Below are positions 1,315 to 25,489 of a DNA stretch of 64,000 nt, piece by piece. The translations under genes and the position numbers were made by a program. This DNA is from Candidatus Hodarchaeaceae archaeon (GTDB lineage: Archaea > Hadarchaeota > Hadarchaeia > Hadarchaeales > Hadarchaeaceae), in assembly GCA_030018135.1 (NCBI GenBank), contig JASEGJ010000003.1:7633-71632 (forward strand), read 5' to 3'. Below the pieces are notes generated by a model that was not told the origin of the DNA, searched no databases, and was given only the letters and a program-made list of their open reading frames with translations. Each line of letters begins with the position of its first letter. Positions within the stretch are counted from its first letter, which is position 1.

Positions 1315-1961
1315 GTAGACCCTTCGAAGAGAATCTTTGCTACCCTCACCCGCAGAGCCTCGAATTCCCTTTCCATTCTAGCCTCCAAAGTGTCGTCGAC
1401 CTCCATCTTCCGATCAGGCGTTCCAACCCTGACCCCACCGATGGTTTGAATTGGTTCACCGAAAGAGATACTTACTGGCCTATCTGCCGCCACCACGCGA
1501 GCGAGCTCGCCCTCATTTTTTTTGAGGAGCTTTAAGTCCCGTTTGTTGGCGTATATAACCGAGTTGTCCGAACCGAGTTTTTTGCACGCGCCTATGGCGA
1601 TGCGAATGAGGTCCCTCTCGTATTTTTCGGATGATGTATATTCCACAAGCCTCCCCTTCGCGCCTCTGAATACCTCATTTACGAGTTCTTCCCTCCTCCG
1701 GAGCACCTCCTTTTTTGCCCTCATCCGGCCCTCCGCGAGCATTGCCTCATATGTTTGCTTGCCCACCGCCTTCGCCTCCTCTACCTCACGCTCTCCTTCC
1801 TCCCTCGCGGTGAAGCGGGCGGCATCCAAGATGGTCTTTGCTTCCCTTCTTGCGGCTTCGATTATCCTAGCCGATTTTTCGCCCGCCTCTTTGAGTATCT
1901 CATCTACTATCAATTGTGCACCTTTGTCGGCCGGCAAGGTACAACCCCCTTTACCACACAC
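1311..1961 (-). CDS. atpE: A-type ATP synthase subunit E
   Basis: 216 aa, charged coiled-coil N-terminus. Operon position between atpK and atpC. Confidence 0.75.
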   Translation of the reverse strand: MCGKGGCTLPADKGAQLIVDEILKEAGEKSARIIEAARREAKTILDAARFTAREEGEREVEEAKAVGKQTYEAMLAEGRMRAKKEVLRRREELVNEVFRGAKGRLVEYTSSEKYERDLIRIAIGACKKLGSDNSVIYANKRDLKLLKKNEGELARVVAADRPVSISFGEPIQTIGGVRVGTPDRKMEVDDTLEARMEREFEALRVRVAKILFEGST

Positions 1962-2418: not shown

Positions 2419-4478
2419 CTACTCACCCCCTTTAATTTGGTGAACGTCCTTTTAGCTTTAAAGGGAGTGAACCCCAAGCCGCCAGCCTCATAGAACTTGC
2501 CGAAAAACTCCGCGAAATGAAGCCTCATCGTATGGATGAAGCCCCCCAAGCTGCTGATGAAGATGTTGAAGCCATGCCCGGCAACGAACAAAAGCCCAAG
2601 GACGATTAACAATGGGACAGCCAAAATCGCGGAGAGTACGGAAAGCTCGGATGGGAACATGCTACCGTACGCAAATTTGACGACATAATTTACCAAAAAT
2701 GCTATGACGCCCGTCGCGAGCCCTAGCGCCATGAGCCTTGCGTAGGAAACCACATCGGCCACCATACCCACTATGCCGTAAACGACGTTGACCGAGCCGC
2801 CGATTCTCTCCAAGCCGCCCTTTCTGGTCAACATAGCTCCAATCACCCCAATCACCAATCCAAGGTAGAGGAAAATTCGAAATGTTGAGACGATGGGCGC
2901 GGCTGGCGAGAACGGATTGAACGCATCGAATAAATCCATCTTCGGAAATGTGAAATCTATGCCGAACGAGGCCATGCTCATGCCAAGCACGCAAAAGCTC
3001 AGACCGAAGAACCCTATTATGATCAGCCCGCGCGAAACGCGGACGAACATCAAGCTCCTCCAGTCCCTCCTAAATACGTCCTTAAGGGCGCCTGCCACGC
3101 CGAATGCCAATAAGAGGTGGAGGATTCCTATGAATAACGCTAGCTTTAGCAGCGGTATCGGGTTCTCGATCGGGTTTGCCCAGCGGGCCTCGAAAAATGG
3201 ATGGATGCCTGCCAGGGCATCGCCAAACCATCCGCCCATCATAAGGCCAGCAAAAATGGTGAATATAGCGCATAGTACCATCATCCGCTTAAGTTCCCGT
3301 GGAAACACCTTGGCGAACCAAAAGTTTGATGCCATAAATAACCCTAAAATGATGCCGTAGCCAGCGTCAGACAAACAGATGGCGAAAAACATCGCAAAGG
3401 TGATCGTGAGTAGCGGTGTTGGATCAACCTCATCATATTTTGGCAGGCCATACATTTTAGTGACGTACTCAAAGTCTTTAATGCCCTGCGGGTTCTCGAG
3501 CTGGGTCGGGACTATTTCGACCTCCGCGGGTCGAGGTTCATAAGTCCTGACGACGTATTGTCCGTGCGTGGTCGCACCAAGTACCGTTTCAAGCTCTTTC
3601 ATCTTTTTTGCCGGAATCCATCCCTCAAGAACTATGGTGGCATCAGTATAACCAAAAATCCTGCCGCACTCGAGCCTCTCCTTTTGGATTTCAAGAAGTT
3701 CCACCAAACAGTTGATATCCGAAGCCTTGGCTCCCGCTAATTTCCTTATACTTTTTTTGAGTCCTGCCTCCCTTTTCTGTAGTTCAACCAATCGCTTTTC
3801 CAGCGACTTCAGCGCTTTTCGCGGAACCCCTACTACCGGCGGAAGCTCGATAAGTTCAACTTCATATTTATACAAAATCGGCAAAATTTTGGGTTGATCC
3901 CGTGCTCTACAAATTAGAACAACTATTCGCACTTTGCCCTTCCCGAACACTGCTACAAGAACCCTGCGCGATAAAGCATCCCTCGCCGACTTGCAAAGTT
4001 CCAATGCCTTTTCCTCCGCGGTGCGCCCAACTGCAACATAAAATTCCTCGGTTGAGCGAAGGTACTGCAGGAGGAGTTTTATCTCGCGGAGATCCTTGAG
4101 CGCGTCTATTTGGGCAAACAGCTTCTGTCTTTCGTCCTCTATATACTTGCTTTTCGCCTTTAGCGCGTTTAGCTTTGGCTCCAGTTTGCCGAGAGTTTTC
4201 CTCGCCAGTTCTAGGGTCTGCCCGTAGGTTAGCTCCTTGAGCTCGACGGGCCGGCCGTATTGGGGGGTCATTAAAAATTCTTGAATCTCTCTAGCCTTCG
4301 CAAGTAACGATGAAACTCCATAAAATTCATCACCCAATGCTCTACGCGAGAGCTCGATTTCTGAGATCTCTTTAAGCTGAACAACGCCCTCCTCATGCAA
4401 TCCCGACACGACATTATCGCGTGCGCGTTGTAGGACTATTGCACGGAATTTTTGCATTCGAGCCGTTCTAAACATCAT
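2412..4478 (-). CDS. atpI: A-type ATP synthase subunit I (stator a subunit)
   Basis: 688 aa. Soluble coiled-coil N-terminal half plus multi-TM C-terminal half. Operon context. Confidence 0.85.
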   Translation of the reverse strand: MMFRTARMQKFRAIVLQRARDNVVSGLHEEGVVQLKEISEIELSRRALGDEFYGVSSLLAKAREIQEFLMTPQYGRPVELKELTYGQTLELARKTLGKLEPKLNALKAKSKYIEDERQKLFAQIDALKDLREIKLLLQYLRSTEEFYVAVGRTAEEKALELCKSARDALSRRVLVAVFGKGKVRIVVLICRARDQPKILPILYKYEVELIELPPVVGVPRKALKSLEKRLVELQKREAGLKKSIRKLAGAKASDINCLVELLEIQKERLECGRIFGYTDATIVLEGWIPAKKMKELETVLGATTHGQYVVRTYEPRPAEVEIVPTQLENPQGIKDFEYVTKMYGLPKYDEVDPTPLLTITFAMFFAICLSDAGYGIILGLFMASNFWFAKVFPRELKRMMVLCAIFTIFAGLMMGGWFGDALAGIHPFFEARWANPIENPIPLLKLALFIGILHLLLAFGVAGALKDVFRRDWRSLMFVRVSRGLIIIGFFGLSFCVLGMSMASFGIDFTFPKMDLFDAFNPFSPAAPIVSTFRIFLYLGLVIGVIGAMLTRKGGLERIGGSVNVVYGIVGMVADVVSYARLMALGLATGVIAFLVNYVVKFAYGSMFPSELSVLSAILAVPLLIVLGLLFVAGHGFNIFISSLGGFIHTMRLHFAEFFGKFYEAGGLGFTPFKAKRTFTKLKGVSRW

Positions 4479-4941: not shown

Positions 4942-6729
4942 TTGGGCAAAATCGTTAGGATTACAGGTCCTGTGGTTATCGCAGACGACATGAAGGGCTC
5001 AGAGATGTATGAGCTCGTAAAGGTGGGCGAGGAGGGACTCATCGGCGAAATAATTGGATTAACTGGCGACAGAGCTACTATTCAGGTATATGAAGAAACA
5101 TCTGGCATAAAACCCGGCGAAAAAGTGGAGGGCACGGGGAAGCCATTATCAGTTGAACTCGGTCCTGGCTTGATCGGAGCCATTTACGATGGTACGCAGA
5201 GACCGCTCACAGTTATTCGAGCGAAGACCGGCGATTTGATAACGCGCGGTATTTCCGCATACGCCTTGCCCCGGGATAAAAAGTGGGGATTTGTGCCAAA
5301 AGTTAAAAAGGGCTCGAATGTCGTCGAGGGCGATGTGCTTGGCACCGTCAAGGAGGGTAAATTGGTCGAACACCGCATCTTGGTGCCTCCCGGGATAAGC
5401 GGCAAGGTGGCCGACATCTCGGAGGGAGCACACAAGGTCGAGGATGTTATAGCAGTGGTTGAGACGGCGAGTGGCGAAAAAAAGATAGCAATGATGCAAA
5501 CGTGGCCCGTGAGGAGGGCTAGGCCGTATAAGGAGAAGCTGGATCCGGTTGAGCCGCTTATATCTGGGCAGCGCGTCATCGATGCTTTTTTCCCGATCGC
5601 AAAAGGGGGAACGGCAGCTATACCCGGTGGATTTGGCACTGGCAAGACGGTCATGCTACATCAGTTCGCAAAGTGGGCCGACGCCGATATCATCGTCTAC
5701 GTCGGCTGTGGCGAGCGTGGTAACGAGATGTGCGATGTCCTCACGCATTTTCCTGAGCTTAAAGATCCCCGAACAGGCGAGTCGTTGATGGAGCGGGTAG
5801 TGCTTATTGCGAATACTTCAAACATGCCAGTCGCTGCAAGGGAGGCAAGCGTCTATACTGGTATCACGATCGCCGAGTACTTCAGGGATATGGGCTACGA
5901 TGTTGCCCTCATGGCCGACTCGACTTCGCGCTGGGCTGAGGCGATGCGTGAGATTTCAGGCAGGCTTGAGGAGATGCCCGGCGAGGAGGGCTTCCCCGCA
6001 TACTTGGCGTCTAGGCTTGCGGAGTTCTACGAGCGCGCCGGTCGCGTGCGGACCATCTGCAGCGGCGATAGAATTGGATCGATCACCGTTGTGGGGGCTG
6101 TTTCACCGCCCGGTGGCGATTTATCTGAACCAGTTTCCCAAAACACCTTGCGCATAGTTAAGGTCTTTTGGGCGCTCGACACCGCTCTAGCCGACCGCCG
6201 TCACTTCCCGGCGATTCATTGGCTGACGAGCTACTCGCTCTACGTTGACGCCATAAAGAATTGGTGGAAGCAAAAGTTTAGTAAGGACTGGAAATCTATG
6301 CGTGACGAGGCCATTGCGATGCTACAAGAGGAGGCCGAACTCGAGGAAATAGTTAAACTAGTCGGACCGGATGCGTTACCCGAGCGGGAGCGAGCGGTAT
6401 TGGAAGCAGCTCGAATAATGCGCGAGGATTTTCTCCAGCAATTTGCATTTCAAGAGGTCGATACTTATTGCCCCGTGGAAAAACAGCTCGGCATGCTCGA
6501 AGGAGTGCTTGAATTTTACCGCAATTGTGTCGAAGCGGCCAAACGCGGCGTCAGCGTAGATGAGATCAGGAAATTACCCATAAAGGATGCCATAGCTGGC
6601 ATGAAAAGGCTTCCGCCGGATAAATTCGAGAGGGAATTCAAATTGCTGAAAAAACAGCTCAAGGAGCAGTTCGCGGTGCTCATGCAAACTAAGAGGGCAC
6701 CCACCGGGGGTAGCGGGCATGACGAATGA
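4942..6729 (+). CDS. atpA: A-type ATP synthase catalytic subunit A (no intein)
   Basis: 595 aa. GPVV motif at N-terminus; Walker A GGFGTGKT; TTG start. Confidence 0.95.
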
Positions 6730-20479: not shown

Positions 20480-21754
20480 ATGCTCAATTATATGATCGAG
20501 AGAATGACTAGGAAAAAAATTGGAAATGTCAAATTTTCCAGAACCAAACCAGAAATCCCAAATGATAAGGATGAAATCGGTCTATACATCCACATACCAT
20601 TTTGTAAGGTCCCATGTCCGTTCTGCGCTTACATCCGCTATCCTTGGAACCCAAAGCTCGAGCGACCTTACGTGGAGGCCGTGAAGGAGGAGATAAACCT
20701 CTACCGGGAGAGGCTAAGCGACGTGAAAATAAACTCTATATACGTCGGCGGGGGCACCCCAACCATCATGCCTGAGGGCATTGCCGATATCCTCAGACAT
20801 GCCGAGGACACTTTCGACGTGAGCAGCGACATAGGAGTCGAATCAAACCCCGATGATTTGAATGAAAAAACCCTTGAGCTTCTGCTTGACGCCGGCGTGA
20901 GCAAGCTCAGCATGGGGGTACAGTCCTTCAACGACGAGATCTTAAAAGCGATAGGGAGACGAAGCCACGACGCAAAACAGGCGCTTGACGCAATAGAACT
21001 CGTCATGGACAACGGTGGATTTGACACTTTCAGCATCGATTTGATGTTTTCCCTGCCGACCCAGTCCCTCTCCAGTTTGAAGAGAGATCTCGAGATAGCC
21101 ATCGAAAAGGGCGTGCCGCAGGTCGCAACTTATCCCCTCCTCTTGTTCCCCTACTGCAAGATGTACCGCGATGAGAAAGAGGGAAAGGTGAAGCTGCAGA
21201 ACAAAAAAATCGAAAAGTGCATGTACGACACCATCGTGGATTCCTTCACGGATGCGGGCTATGAACCATGTTCGGTCTGGAGCTTCGTAAAGCAAGGGAT
21301 AGACAAGTACGGATCGGTCGAACGCGATGAGTACGTTGGGATAGGCGCGGGGGCGATGAGTTCTGTGAACCAATACTTTTACGCCAACACCGCTTCGATC
21401 GAGGAATACACCCGGACGGTAGGGGAGGGAGCTCTACCAATAACGATCGGGGCAGAGTTCCAGCCGGAGGGCGTCGCGGCGAGATGGCTGTCTATGTCAC
21501 TTTACGAAACGGGGTTCGACAAGCGCGAGTTCAAAAATCGCTTCAGCATGGGTGTCGACGAGAAATTTAAATCATTCCTGCGCTGGCTCAAACTCTTTGG
21601 GATCATAAAACTCGAAGGAGATCACGTCCAAGTTACAAGGAAAGGTATGTGCCCCATCCATCTGATGACAAAAACATTCTTGCTCACGTTCATAGCCAAA
21701 GCGTGCGTCGCGTGCATGGAAAACCCAAAGCCCCTAAACTTGCAGGTAGGCTAA
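20480..21754 (+). CDS. HemN/HemW-family radical SAM protein (coproporphyrinogen III oxidase-like / heme chaperone)
   Basis: 424 aa. HIPFCKVPCPFCAY CxxxCxxC motif; GGGTP motif. Confidence 0.8.
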   Translation: MLNYMIERMTRKKIGNVKFSRTKPEIPNDKDEIGLYIHIPFCKVPCPFCAYIRYPWNPKLERPYVEAVKEEINLYRERLSDVKINSIYVGGGTPTIMPEGIADILRHAEDTFDVSSDIGVESNPDDLNEKTLELLLDAGVSKLSMGVQSFNDEILKAIGRRSHDAKQALDAIELVMDNGGFDTFSIDLMFSLPTQSLSSLKRDLEIAIEKGVPQVATYPLLLFPYCKMYRDEKEGKVKLQNKKIEKCMYDTIVDSFTDAGYEPCSVWSFVKQGIDKYGSVERDEYVGIGAGAMSSVNQYFYANTASIEEYTRTVGEGALPITIGAEFQPEGVAARWLSMSLYETGFDKREFKNRFSMGVDEKFKSFLRWLKLFGIIKLEGDHVQVTRKGMCPIHLMTKTFLLTFIAKACVACMENPKPLNLQVG

Positions 21755-21834
21755 GCGTTGCTTCTCTTCAGTCTTCGGATGGATTTTATTGCAATTGCAT
21801 ATAACAACAACAGTTAAAAACACTTTCACGCTAA

Positions 21835-21854
21835 AAATTAGGCATGCCTAATTT
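21835..21854. promoter_or_regulatory. Perfect 20-bp palindrome AAATTAGGCATGCCTAATTT, candidate DtxR/MntR operator
   Basis: Exact self-complement, 15 nt upstream of the feoA TTG start, between a TATA-like ttaaaaa and the RBS aaggag. Confidence 0.5.
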
Positions 21855-21869
21855 CAAGGAGAGCCGTAT

Positions 21870-22103
21870 TTGAGAAAATTACTCGTTGAGCTAAGAGCGG
21901 GCGAGAGTGGCATCATTGCGGGCGTCACAGGCGGGTTTGGGTTGCAACGGCGTTTGGCAACTTTAGGGATAAAAATCAACAAAAAAGTCCGAATGATCAC
22001 TGCTCAACCGTTCAGGGGCCCTGTTGTCGTGGAAGTCGATGGGGCCCGTGTAGCAATCGGCATGGGAATAGCTTGGAAGGTCCTTGTGGAGGTAACAAAG
22101 TGA
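21870..22103 (+). CDS. feoA: Ferrous iron transport protein A
   Basis: 77 aa SH3-like FeoA. TTG start with AAGGAG RBS. Confidence 0.8.
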   Translation: MRKLLVELRAGESGIIAGVTGGFGLQRRLATLGIKINKKVRMITAQPFRGPVVVEVDGARVAIGMGIAWKVLVEVTK

Positions 22104-23806
22104 GAATACTCCTCATGGGAAATCCAAACGTCGGTAAAAGTGTCGTTTTTTCAAGGCTGACAGGTACCAGCGTGGTCGTGTCCAATTACCCCGGTACCAC
22201 AGTTGAGTTCACGAAAGGCACGATGAAGATTGGGGAAAAGAAAGCAGACGTAATCGACGTTCCGGGGACCTATACCTTGGAGCCAACCACAAGGGCAGAA
22301 GAAGTCGCAGTTGAGATGCTTAAAGAAGGCGATGTGGTCATCGATATCGTCGACGCCACAAACTTGGAGAGAAACCTTTACTTAACGCTTCAGCTATTGG
22401 AAAAGAAAGTGCCTGTGATCGTGGCCCTCAACTTGTCGGACGAGGCCAAGCACAAAGGTATAACTATCGATGTCAAGAAACTCGAGAAATTATTAGACGT
22501 CCCAGTCGTTCCCACCGTTGCCATCACTGGAGAGGGGCTCAAAAAACTCGTTTCTCGCCTGCCTGAAGCCAAAGCACATGCTTACAGACACACCGACGAA
22601 CAAAGATGGGAAAAAGTGGGCAAGATCGTTGAAGATGTCCAATCAGTAGCGCATCGACATCATACTTTGGCAGAAAGGCTAGGGGATGCAACCGTTAGGC
22701 CCTTAACTGGGATCCCAATTGCCATTGGAATAGTTACACTAATGTTCCTTGTGATACGATTCATCGGCGAGGGATTGATTGCCAATGTGTTTGATCCAGC
22801 GTTTGGGGCCTATGAACCCGTAGCGATGAGGATGAGCGAAGCATTAGGTTCTGGCGGCCTCCTCCATAATATCGTAATCGGAAACCTGATCGATGGCGGG
22901 ATAGACTTTACGCAGTCCATGGGCCTATTGACTACCGGGATTTTTGTCCCGTTCGCAATGGTTCTACCTTACGTGTTTGCGTTTTACTTGGTGCTGGGAT
23001 TTCTCGAGGATAGCGGCTACTTACCAAGGCTAGGTGTACTTGTCGATAGTGGAATGCACAGGGTAGGGATGCACGGCCTTGCGGTAGTGCCGATGTTGCT
23101 TGGCTTAGGGTGCAATGTCCCGGGAGCTCTTTCTTCCAGAATTCTCGAAACTCAAAGGCAAAGGTTCATTGCCCTCACGCTCATGGGGATAGCAGTCCCA
23201 TGCATGGCCCAGCTCGCCATAATCTTCGGGTTGGTAGGTCCCTATGGCATCGGAGCTCTGGCGATGGTCTTTGCAACACTTTTTGTGGTATGGGTGGTGA
23301 TTGGGCTCTTGCTCAACAAGGTTTTGGCGGGCGAAAGTCCGGAGATGTTCACAGAAATTCCGCCTTACCGCATGCCGTATTGGGGGGCAACATTGAAAAA
23401 GCTGTGGATGAGGATAAGGCACTTTTTGACCACGGCGATCCCCTTCGTGCTGCTGGGCGTACTTCTTGTGAATGTATTGTATACTTTGGGGATAATCGAC
23501 TTCATGGGTGATATCGCATCCCCAGTTGTTGTTGGGTTGCTTGGGTTACCGCCGGCTGCGGCCGGAGCATTGATAATAGGATTTCTGCGCAAAGATGTGG
23601 CTGTAGGGATGTTGCTGCCCCTCGGCCTGAGCATGCAACAGCTGGTAGTGGCCAGCGTGGTACTGGCGATGTACTTCCCCTGTGTCGCAACCTTCGCCAT
23701 CCTCTTCAAAGAGTTCGGGATAAAAGGCACGATAAAATCTACTTCAATTATGATCGGAATGGCGTTGCTAGTGGGGACTTTACTTAGACTTGTACTCGGT
23801 GTGTGA
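22100..23806 (+). CDS. feoB: Ferrous iron transport protein B (GTPase plus permease)
   Basis: G1 motif [11 protein letters not shown] start overlapping the feoA stop (GTGA), with GGAGGT RBS. Long polytopic C-terminal half. Confidence 0.9.
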
Positions 23807-24350: not shown

Positions 24351-24653
24351 ATGAAACCCAGGTTCTTGAGCTTCAGGCCCGAAGCGATAACGTTTATGCC
24401 ATCCGCTCCAATAGGGCCACCAATCGCGGGCGAGCCGATCTACATGACTTATGACGAGTACGAGGCCTTTCGCCTGATTTATCACGAAGGGCTGAACCAG
24501 GAGGAGGCCGCCAAGCGGATGAAAATTTCGCGTGGGACGGTGTGGCGCTGCTTAGAGAGCGCGAGGAATAAGGTTGCCTGCATGCTCGTCGAACGCCGCC
24601 CGCTCGTGGTCACGTCTGCACCTCCTCGACCTCCAGAGGAGACAGGCACTTGA
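24351..24653 (+). CDS. DUF134 (UPF0251) family putative DNA-binding protein
   Basis: MKPRFLSFRPEAITFMP N-terminus and sigma-70 region-4-like HTH LNQEEAAKRMKISRGTVWRCLESARNKVA. GGAAGG RBS upstream. The ORF-track TTG start at 24273 was rejected. Confidence 0.65.
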   Translation: MKPRFLSFRPEAITFMPSAPIGPPIAGEPIYMTYDEYEAFRLIYHEGLNQEEAAKRMKISRGTVWRCLESARNKVACMLVERRPLVVTSAPPRPPEETGT

Positions 24654-25489
24654 GCCAAGTCGATAGAATACGGCTCACGGTTTTGGTTGACGATTCCAAG
24701 AACCCGATCAGACCCGAACTCACAGCCAAGCACGGGTTGTCCTTCTTCATCGAATTGAAAGCTGGCAGACACACAACTAGTCTGTTGCTGGATACCGGGC
24801 CGTCCGCCGATGTTGTCCTACAAAACGCTCGGAAGCTCGACATCGATTTGAGGAAGGTGGATTCTATTTTCCTGAGCCACGGACATTACGACCATACCGG
24901 TGGGCTCTTGGGCGTCCTAAAACACATCGGCAAAAAGGTACCTGTGATAGCCCACCCAGAGGCGCTTGAGCCAAAATTTGCGAGGAGGAAGAAGCGTCTC
25001 AAAAAGGCCGGCATCCCTTTTCAAGTTTCAGAGTTGCAGAGATCGAGCGGCATCTTAACTCTAAAACGGGGGTCGACTTCCGTAGCGCCCGGAGTTTGGG
25101 TGAGCGGGGAAATCAAAAGAGTCAGCCCATTTGAAGAGGTAAAGGGGTTCAAGGTTATGAGGCGGGGCAAACTCGTAGAGGATTACATGCCGGATGATCA
25201 GGCTCTTTTCGTGAGGGTCAAGGGCAGGGGGCTGGTGGTCATCACGGGTTGCGCTCACGCGGGGTTGATAAACACGATCAAGCAGGCGCAAAAGGTAACG
25301 GGTTCGAGCGGCGTGTATGCGGTCGTTGGTGGGTTTCACCTAGCTGGAGCAAGTGCGGGAAGGATAAATGCAACCATTGAGGAGCTCCAGAAAGCTGGCG
25401 TGAAAGCTGTCATGCCATGTCACTGCACGGGAAAGAAGGCAATCACAAAGTTCTCGAAGGTCTTTGGAAAAAAAGTGCAACCAGCTTAG
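24650..25489 (+). CDS. Metallo-beta-lactamase fold hydrolase
   Basis: HxHxDH motif (LSHGHYDHTGG). Overlaps the DUF134 stop by 4 nt. Confidence 0.7.
   Translation: MSQVDRIRLTVLVDDSKNPIRPELTAKHGLSFFIELKAGRHTTSLLLDTGPSADVVLQNARKLDIDLRKVDSIFLSHGHYDHTGGLLGVLKHIGKKVPVIAHPEALEPKFARRKKRLKKAGIPFQVSELQRSSGILTLKRGSTSVAPGVWVSGEIKRVSPFEEVKGFKVMRRGKLVEDYMPDDQALFVRVKGRGLVVITGCAHAGLINTIKQAQKVTGSSGVYAVVGGFHLAGASAGRINATIEELQKAGVKAVMPCHCTGKKAITKFSKVFGKKVQPA

Follow-up and report, generated by a model that had tools for sequence, protein, structure and literature searches.

A perfect palindrome upstream of feoA as the probable operator of a DtxR-family repressor in an uncultivated hadarchaeal lineage

In a 64-kb stretch of DNA from an uncultivated archaeal lineage (hereafter the window, meaning the whole stretch that was analysed), the genes feoA, feoB and dtxR are preceded by a perfect 20-bp palindrome, AAATTAGGCATGCCTAATTT. 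We propose that this palindrome is the operator of the operon's own DtxR-family repressor, a reading to which we assign, on comparative sequence evidence, a probability of about 0.8. The features concerned are collected in Table 1.

The three genes look like one translationally coupled operon. The GTG start codon of feoB is likely the one at 22100, which gives a protein as long as its orthologues, has GGAGGT in front of it and overlaps the end of feoA by 4 nt within GTGA; the ATG of dtxR follows 1 nt past the feoB stop codon, and the genes are presumably co-transcribed. FeoB scores 364 bits against NCBIfam TIGR00437, above the equivalog cut-off, and Pfam bears out that the last gene encodes a DtxR-family repressor, as had been read from the sequence alone. 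The same arrangement is kept at four related loci (L002-L004 and L008). Downstream of dtxR, a gene for a DUF134 DNA-binding protein follows after a gap of about 114 bp and apparently has its own promoter. This gene and one for a metallo-beta-lactamase-fold protein (24351-25489 in the window) stand beside feoAB-dtxR in most relatives (L001-L004, L008), and at L001 they adjoin Nitro_FeMo-Co and ParA/4Fe-4S genes, a hint that the operon belongs to a wider metal-cofactor neighbourhood.

The short feoA gene, with its TTG start codon, was not called by gene finders at L006 and L007. It is probably absent from the NCBI annotation of the source MAG too, since the accessions there run consecutively from the radical SAM gene upstream of feoA (MDI6819607) to DtxR (MDI6819609).

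Table 1. Positions of the features discussed; those without a locus name refer to the window.
Feature	Position	Strand	Basis or remark
Upstream block TTGCAATTGCAYATAACAACAACAG, includes 10-bp palindrome TGCAATTGCA (21790-21799)	21788-21812	+	79% mean column identity
TATA-box-like TTAAAAAC, with the preceding purine-rich stretch the presumed core promoter	21814-21821	+	GTTAAAWA in 8/8 loci
Perfect 20-bp palindrome AAATTAGGCATGCCTAATTT, proposed DtxR-family repressor operator	21835-21854		Sequence, conservation
14-bp core TTAGG-CATG-CCTAA (TTAGGCATGCCTAA), two inverted CCTAA half-sites, one dimer	21838-21851		Matches TTAGGNNNNCCTAA
Shine-Dalgarno AAGGAG, 8 nt before the feoA TTG	21856-21861	+	Read directly; similar purine-rich elements in orthologous loci
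feoA, 77 aa, TTG start	21870-22103	+	Pfam FeoA, E=1.5e-18
feoB, 568 aa, GTG 22100	22100-23806	+	Pfam FeoB_N, Gate, FeoB_C
Two-domain DtxR-family metalloregulator, 142 aa	23808-24236	+	Pfam Fe_dep_repress and Fe_dep_repr_C
38-aa Cys-rich ORF	L001 3885-3998; L009 472-585; L010 229-342		No Pfam or NCBIfam match
Double-box loci	L046 ~2990-3043; L069 ~2610-2665; L108 ~5850-5900; L047 ~1770-1812		

The palindrome lies within the 115 bp that separate a HemN/HemW-like radical SAM gene (20480-21754) from feoA, 14 nt downstream of the TATA-like TTAAAAAC, and it directly abuts the feoA Shine-Dalgarno sequence (21831-21861 read gctaAAATTAGGCATGCCTAATTTcaaggag). The sequence-only reading had described it as exactly self-complementary and as placed between a TATA-like TTAAAAA (21814-21820) and the feoA ribosome-binding site; both statements hold, with the same coordinates. 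It cannot be extended past 20 bp because position 21834 is A and position 21855 is C. At a G+C content of 54.6%, the window contains no longer perfect palindrome, and the runners-up are five of 14 bp. Perfect palindromes of at least 20 bp appeared in 20 of 300 64-kb windows simulated with a first-order Markov model (~7%); the length by itself is only mildly surprising. That such a palindrome would land by chance in the 115 bp between these two genes has, as a rough estimate, a probability of about 1e-4. Chance is ruled out as an explanation by the conservation of the palindrome at related loci, described below.

The core of the palindrome has a precedent in IdeR, each monomer of which reads one CCTAA: the 19-bp sequence TTAGGTTAGSCTAACCTAA binds two dimers and the 14-bp sequence TTAGGNNNNCCTAA binds one (PMC8464063). 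On either side of the core in the window, the flanks CTAAAAA and TTTCAAGG hold no second, overlapping TTAGG or CCTAA, which makes this a one-dimer site, and inspection of these flanks revealed no full 19-bp two-dimer box with four CCTAA elements at the palindrome. The earlier suggestion that the site has the form expected of a DtxR operator holds, with the refinement that the core agrees with the one-dimer consensus TTAGGNNNNCCTAA and not with the classical overlapping 19-bp two-dimer box.

Homologues of the regulator (66-85% identical) led to the contigs that encode them. The window was aligned with seven other loci that carry feoA-feoB-dtxR orthologues, giving 8 loci whose regulators are 66-100% identical. 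Wherever a locus extends upstream of feoA, it contains AATTAGG[C/T]AT[G/A]CCTAA[T/C]T, 15-30 nt before the feoA start codon. Mean column identity across the 8 loci is 96% in the palindrome, 81% in the TATA-like element and 79% in the upstream block, falling to 53% between the TATA-like element and the palindrome and to 60% between the palindrome and the start codon. The site upstream of feoA is conserved at all orthologous loci examined, while its flanks drift. The only variable positions in the palindrome are the third from the centre (C/T on the left, G/A on the right) and one outer position per arm. The site stays with feoA even where the upstream gene is a different one (L003, L004, L006) or the neighbour lies on the opposite strand (L007).

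Three further relatives came from a genome scan (L096, on the same contig as L007, L098 and L101). These closest loci are all labelled Hadarchaeota or Hadesarchaea, with FeoB 88-94% and DtxR 70-87% identical to the proteins of the window; FeoB of L036 is 69% identical, and the Asgard locus L087 is only about 41% identical. The NCBI protein name, "Candidatus Hodarchaeaceae archaeon", denotes an Asgard group and may reflect a mix-up of Hod- and Had- in the record.

At three loci dtxR is separated from feoB (L001, L009, L010), and no operator was found in front of dtxR there. Directly upstream of the separated dtxR stands a conserved Cys-rich peptide of 38 aa (MNFKTKIS...C..C....SC...), which has no counterpart in the window.

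Upstream of the palindrome, the TATA-like TTAAAAAC is the putative promoter element. To judge from its conservation, the block that precedes it may bind a second factor or act as an extended BRE. The 10-bp AT-rich palindrome within this block, reported earlier at 21791-21800, is present one position further upstream, at 21790-21799. Its palindromy is lost in L003, L004 and L006 (GCAATAACAC or GCAATAGCAC), and palindromes of this length are common, the window having 49. In L001, TGCAATTG is retained at a distance similar to that of the block.

Archaeal TATA boxes are centred near -26/-27. On this assumption, and as a prediction only, transcription would start inside the palindrome at all 8 loci. 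The distance from GTTAAAWA to TTAGG varies from 19 to 32 nt among the orthologues, which leaves the exact overlap of operator and start site uncertain; transcription is unlikely to begin further downstream, since the Shine-Dalgarno sequence and TTG codon of feoA require a leader. Among the matches listed from other archaea, clear BRE/TATA elements precede the same operator by 2-24 nt, as in a Thermococci example (...gaaaccTTTATAAAgaAATTAGG...).

We infer from this arrangement the binding of the palindrome by this protein, the position of the start site and the identity of the metal, and with them the following mechanism. When the cytoplasm holds sufficient metal, most likely Fe2+, a metal-loaded dimer would sit on the palindrome, each of its winged-helix domains contacting one CCTAA half-site of TTAGG-N4-CCTAA. 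The bound dimer would span the predicted start, about 14 nt past the TATA-like box, and because this start lies inside the palindrome, the region contacted by RNA polymerase would be occupied. Recruitment of the polymerase to the TBP/TFB complex would be blocked and feoAB repressed, a mode of action described for other archaeal repressors with binding sites so placed. Since the regulator is the last gene of the repressed operon, its own synthesis would be lowered as well, amounting to negative autoregulation. When the metal falls, the apo-protein would leave the site and Fe(II) uptake would be switched on. Repression need not be the sign of the regulation in all archaea: the DtxR of P. furiosus may act positively at feoAB under low iron, according to a secondary report (PMC9431491).

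An exact scan for the 18-bp core AATTAGGYATRCCTAATT, with one genome each for 185,579 species, returned at least 119 stretches. Among the matches listed, 34 stretches are from Alteromonadales and 85 from other organisms (34 archaeal, 51 bacterial), the archaeal ones including Hadarchaeota, Methanoperedens, Thermococci, Thermoplasmata, Methanocella, Promethearchaeota and Nitrososphaera, and others. No more than 400 bp separate the motif from a DtxR, FeoA or FeoB gene at 16 of the 34 archaeal loci listed and at 15 bacterial ones. If FTR1, ABC-transporter, MgtE and Nramp neighbours are counted together with DtxR/Feo, the numbers in this set rise to 24 of 34 archaeal and at least 19 of 51 bacterial loci. 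In the same matches, 103 ORFs begin no more than 250 bp from the motif and are directed away from it. Pfam hits among them comprise 19 Fe_dep_repress, 17 FeoA-domain (some being the third domains of bacterial DtxR proteins), 8 FeoB_N, 8 TonB-dependent receptor, 6 FTR1 and 5 Nramp. By a rough estimate, well under 1% of random positions would lie so near to such genes. In the listed matches, the same 18-mer precedes feoA in Thermococci MAGs and FTR1 in Methanoperedens. It also lies between DtxR-family and Nramp genes in Acidobacteria and Verrucomicrobia, and before Nramp in Bacteroidia. The expectation that a search for the motif would lead to other metal-uptake genes is thus borne out across many archaea and bacteria, among the matches listed. 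Within the window there is no second site. Searches of the 64 kb for the 20-mer with up to 3 mismatches, for TTAGGCNNGCCTAA with up to 3 and for TTAGGNNNNCCTAA with up to 2 found nothing beyond chance; the last gave 10 matches against 18.6 expected, and only the one at 21838-21851 stands out. With a single site in the window, a wider regulon cannot be demonstrated locally.

A second, imperfect TTAGG-N4-CCTAA stands in tandem with the exact box, or overlaps it, in Methanocella, a Methanobacteriota MAG, Hydrothermarchaeota and another Hadarchaeota MAG; the lineage of the window has a single box. A 24-bp palindrome, AGTAATTAGGCATGCCTAATTACT, occurs on four contigs of one Blastochloridaceae MAG (L050 at 5045, L052 at 6637, L061 at 1657 and L063 at 3017), where some of the adjacent ORFs have no Pfam hit.

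The regulator itself combines an N-terminal winged-helix domain (PF01325, E=1.3e-11, 45 bits against a cut-off of 26) with a dimerisation and metal-binding domain (PF02742, E=2e-25), and its best matches among solved structures are IdeR, DtxR, ScaR, SloR and MntR. Five of the seven metal ligands of M. tuberculosis IdeR are identical: His79, Glu83, Cys102, Glu105 and His106 correspond to His78, Glu82, Cys101, Glu104 and His105. The other two are replaced, Met10 by Glu8 and His98 by Glu97, and none of the seven positions varies in 14 orthologues. In the recognition helix, APPSVFQM corresponds to SGPTVSQT of IdeR, and Pro39 and Gln43, which are kept, are likewise invariant in these orthologues.

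By these features the protein falls outside both well-known classes. It differs from DtxR and IdeR proper in its length of 142 aa, in having no C-terminal SH3-like domain and in the loss of the Met10 ligand, with Cys102 kept, and it scores 75 bits against the NCBIfam DtxR equivalog, for which the cut-off is 290. It resembles MntR in the acidic residue at the Met10 position, but has Cys and not Glu at the Cys102 position, and it scores 51-75 bits against MntR equivalogs with cut-offs of 138-350. NCBIfam assigns it to neither the iron nor the manganese equivalog, the DtxR and MntR models tying at 75 bits. The ligand set is thus mixed, since the Cys is kept and the Met is lost. A sulfur ligand raises selectivity for Fe2+ (PMC10317159). 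Among the matches listed, archaeal regulators whose neighbours are the same motif and feoAB or FTR1 carry Cys102, whereas the bacterial ones linked to Nramp or TonB-dependent genes have Glu. Judged from these sequences, the Cys102 pattern favours Fe2+ sensing by this regulator.

The same architecture might nevertheless serve an MntR-like sensor of manganese or a broad sensor of divalent metals, with feoAB controlled by Mn2+ or even importing it. Glu in place of the IdeR Met10, where MntR proteins have Asp or Asn, would fit such a sensor, as would the equal NCBIfam scores, the identical 18-mer before Nramp in Acidobacteria, Verrucomicrobia and Bacteroidia (among the matches listed) and the activation of IdeR by several metals in vitro (PMC10317159). 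Against it stand the invariance of Cys102 in the orthologues, its presence in the archaeal regulators linked to feoAB or FTR1 where the listed Nramp- and TonB-linked bacterial ones have Glu, and a target that passes the feoB equivalog cut-off; the reported targets of the Thermococcales DtxR are also iron transporters (PMC12827226). We regard this alternative as unlikely, if the most serious of those considered. The term iron box, used in the sequence-only reading, is therefore supported as regards a DtxR-family operator; iron itself is no more than probable, as the same 18-mer is found before Nramp and Glu occupies the Met10 position.

The C-terminus of the regulator carries an additional motif, C116-x4-H121-x3-C125-x-H127-x8-C136-C137 (24153-24218), which does not vary among 14 orthologues. 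Regulators associated with the same operator in Methanobacteriota (L069) and Methanocella (L046) share it, and it is absent from IdeR, DtxR and MntR. From its residues, the motif may be an additional metal or Fe-S site. If it binds a metal or an Fe-S cluster, the switch would report Fe-S or redox status and not free Fe2+ alone. This motif is the sole feature here that might hide something new. That it defines an archaeal subgroup with a third site of Cys and His residues, and that one 18-mer serves both iron sensors with Cys102 in archaea and manganese sensors with Glu102 in bacteria, is a broader and quite doubtful proposition.

The palindrome could also be bound by some other factor, such as the nearby DUF134 or TFX proteins or an unlinked regulator, in which case the presence of the DtxR gene would be coincidental. 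DUF134 genes are indeed often near the operon, and proteins outside the DtxR family evidently can make use of the sequence. Among the matches listed, a palindrome of the form AAAATTAGGCATGCCTAATTTT occurs in Pseudoalteromonas, Alteromonas, Neptunicella and Catenovulum; its flanks there are unrelated, and it often immediately precedes a Shine-Dalgarno sequence and ATG (loci including L014, L016, L020, L029, L040, L067, L073, L088, L090, L121 and L127). One 93-kb Pseudoalteromonas contig holds 13 copies of this 18-22-bp palindrome. The neighbours are DUF927 primase-like genes, DNA methyltransferases and small unknown ORFs, with no DtxR gene nearby. A metal regulon was considered for these Alteromonadales copies and rejected in view of their link to mobile-element genes; here the palindrome appears to be an operator for some mobile-element regulator with no connection to metals. 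Because these elements use the same palindrome, its sequence alone is not diagnostic. For the site before feoA, a different binding factor is very improbable nonetheless: 31 of the 85 listed non-Alteromonadales loci, spread over many phyla, have a DtxR or Feo gene no further than 400 bp away, DUF134 is absent or distant at several loci that bear the operator (L007, L036, L047), and the half-site is one known to be read by IdeR.

A role as RNA, either as a hairpin in the 5'-UTR or as a terminator of the upstream gene, is brought to mind by a perfect inverted repeat that abuts the Shine-Dalgarno sequence and is followed by TTT, and can be set aside: the fold of 21828-21885 is unremarkable (z=-1.1) with no palindrome hairpin in the minimum-energy structure, the variants are one-sided (C to T; G to A, giving C-A; T to C, giving A-C) and never compensated, the site travels with feoA in L003, L004, L006 and L007, and in Thermococci and others the motif comes directly after the TATA box, so that most of it would be untranscribed.

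An operator for the operon's own DtxR-family protein accordingly remains our preferred reading, and it can be placed among known systems. The core and spacing are identical to the one-dimer site TTAGGNNNNCCTAA of Saccharopolyspora IdeR (PMC8464063). As with IdeR, a metal-activated repressor of iron uptake is predicted here, and Pro39, Gln43, His79, Glu83, Cys102, Glu105 and His106 are kept. In contrast to IdeR and DtxR, whose TTAGGTTAGSCTAACCTAA box takes two overlapping dimers, the site accommodates a single dimer; the protein has no SH3-like third domain, has Glu in place of Met10 and His98 and bears the extra invariant C-terminal Cys/His motif, and the promoter is of the archaeal TATA/TFB type and not a sigma-70 promoter.

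The operators of MDR1, an archaeal DtxR homologue of Archaeoglobus fulgidus, reportedly overlap the start site and block recruitment of RNA polymerase, not binding of TBP/TFB, as Bell et al. are said to have found in 1999. MDR1 represses its own operon in a metal-dependent manner and recognises the motif GTT-N8,9-AAC (PMC3074139). It reportedly acts at several operators and is encoded by the first gene of an ABC-transporter operon. The palindrome in the window does not conform to that motif, having TTAGG-N4-CCTAA, and the regulator gene comes last. What is shared with MDR1 is a regulator gene inside the operon, presumably co-transcribed, whose promoter bears the operator.

Closer in their targets are the archaeal FetR regulons of the DtxR family that Leyn and Rodionov reportedly predicted in 2015 with feoAB, and the DtxR of Thermococcales, which Zhu et al. 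are said to have shown in 2013 to control feoAB and ftr1. The lineage of the window reportedly lies outside the genome sets of both studies. These systems too reportedly join a DtxR-family regulator and a palindromic box to FeoAB (and Ftr1) targets. FeoAB and Ftr1 are given as targets of the Thermococcales DtxR in secondary citations (PMC12827226, PMC9431491).

A further parallel is the bacterial control of mntH (Nramp) by MntR: among the matches listed, the identical 18-mer separates DtxR-family from Nramp genes in Acidobacteria and Verrucomicrobia. Unlike the regulator described here, those proteins consist of three domains, carry Glu at the Cys102 position and have manganese or TonB-dependent transporters as targets. 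In Haloferax volcanii, iron uptake is repressed under iron-replete conditions by TroR, an archaeal member of the DtxR family. Its ChIP-seq motif, TTTAGGC-N3-CCTAAA, agrees with the site described here in the TTAGGC half-site and in the TTAGG-N4-CCTAA spacing (PMC10783522). TroR sites differ in lying about 100 nt upstream of start codons, often in tandem, and the regulon consists of siderophore and ABC uptake genes, with troR itself constitutive and outside the regulated operon (PMC10783522).

The instance described here is new, and a DtxR-family operator before feoAB is of a known kind, predicted across Archaea by comparative genomics and examined by experiment in Thermococcales, Archaeoglobus and haloarchaea. 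Finding it leaves the understanding of metal-dependent repression unchanged. For an uncultivated archaeal lineage, it provides a concrete and easily testable candidate pair of regulator and operator controlling iron uptake, of use when such genomes are annotated and when metatranscriptomes are taken as indicators of iron status. It also shows a one-dimer TTAGG-N4-CCTAA box to be common to archaeal and bacterial regulators of the DtxR family, almost letter for letter.
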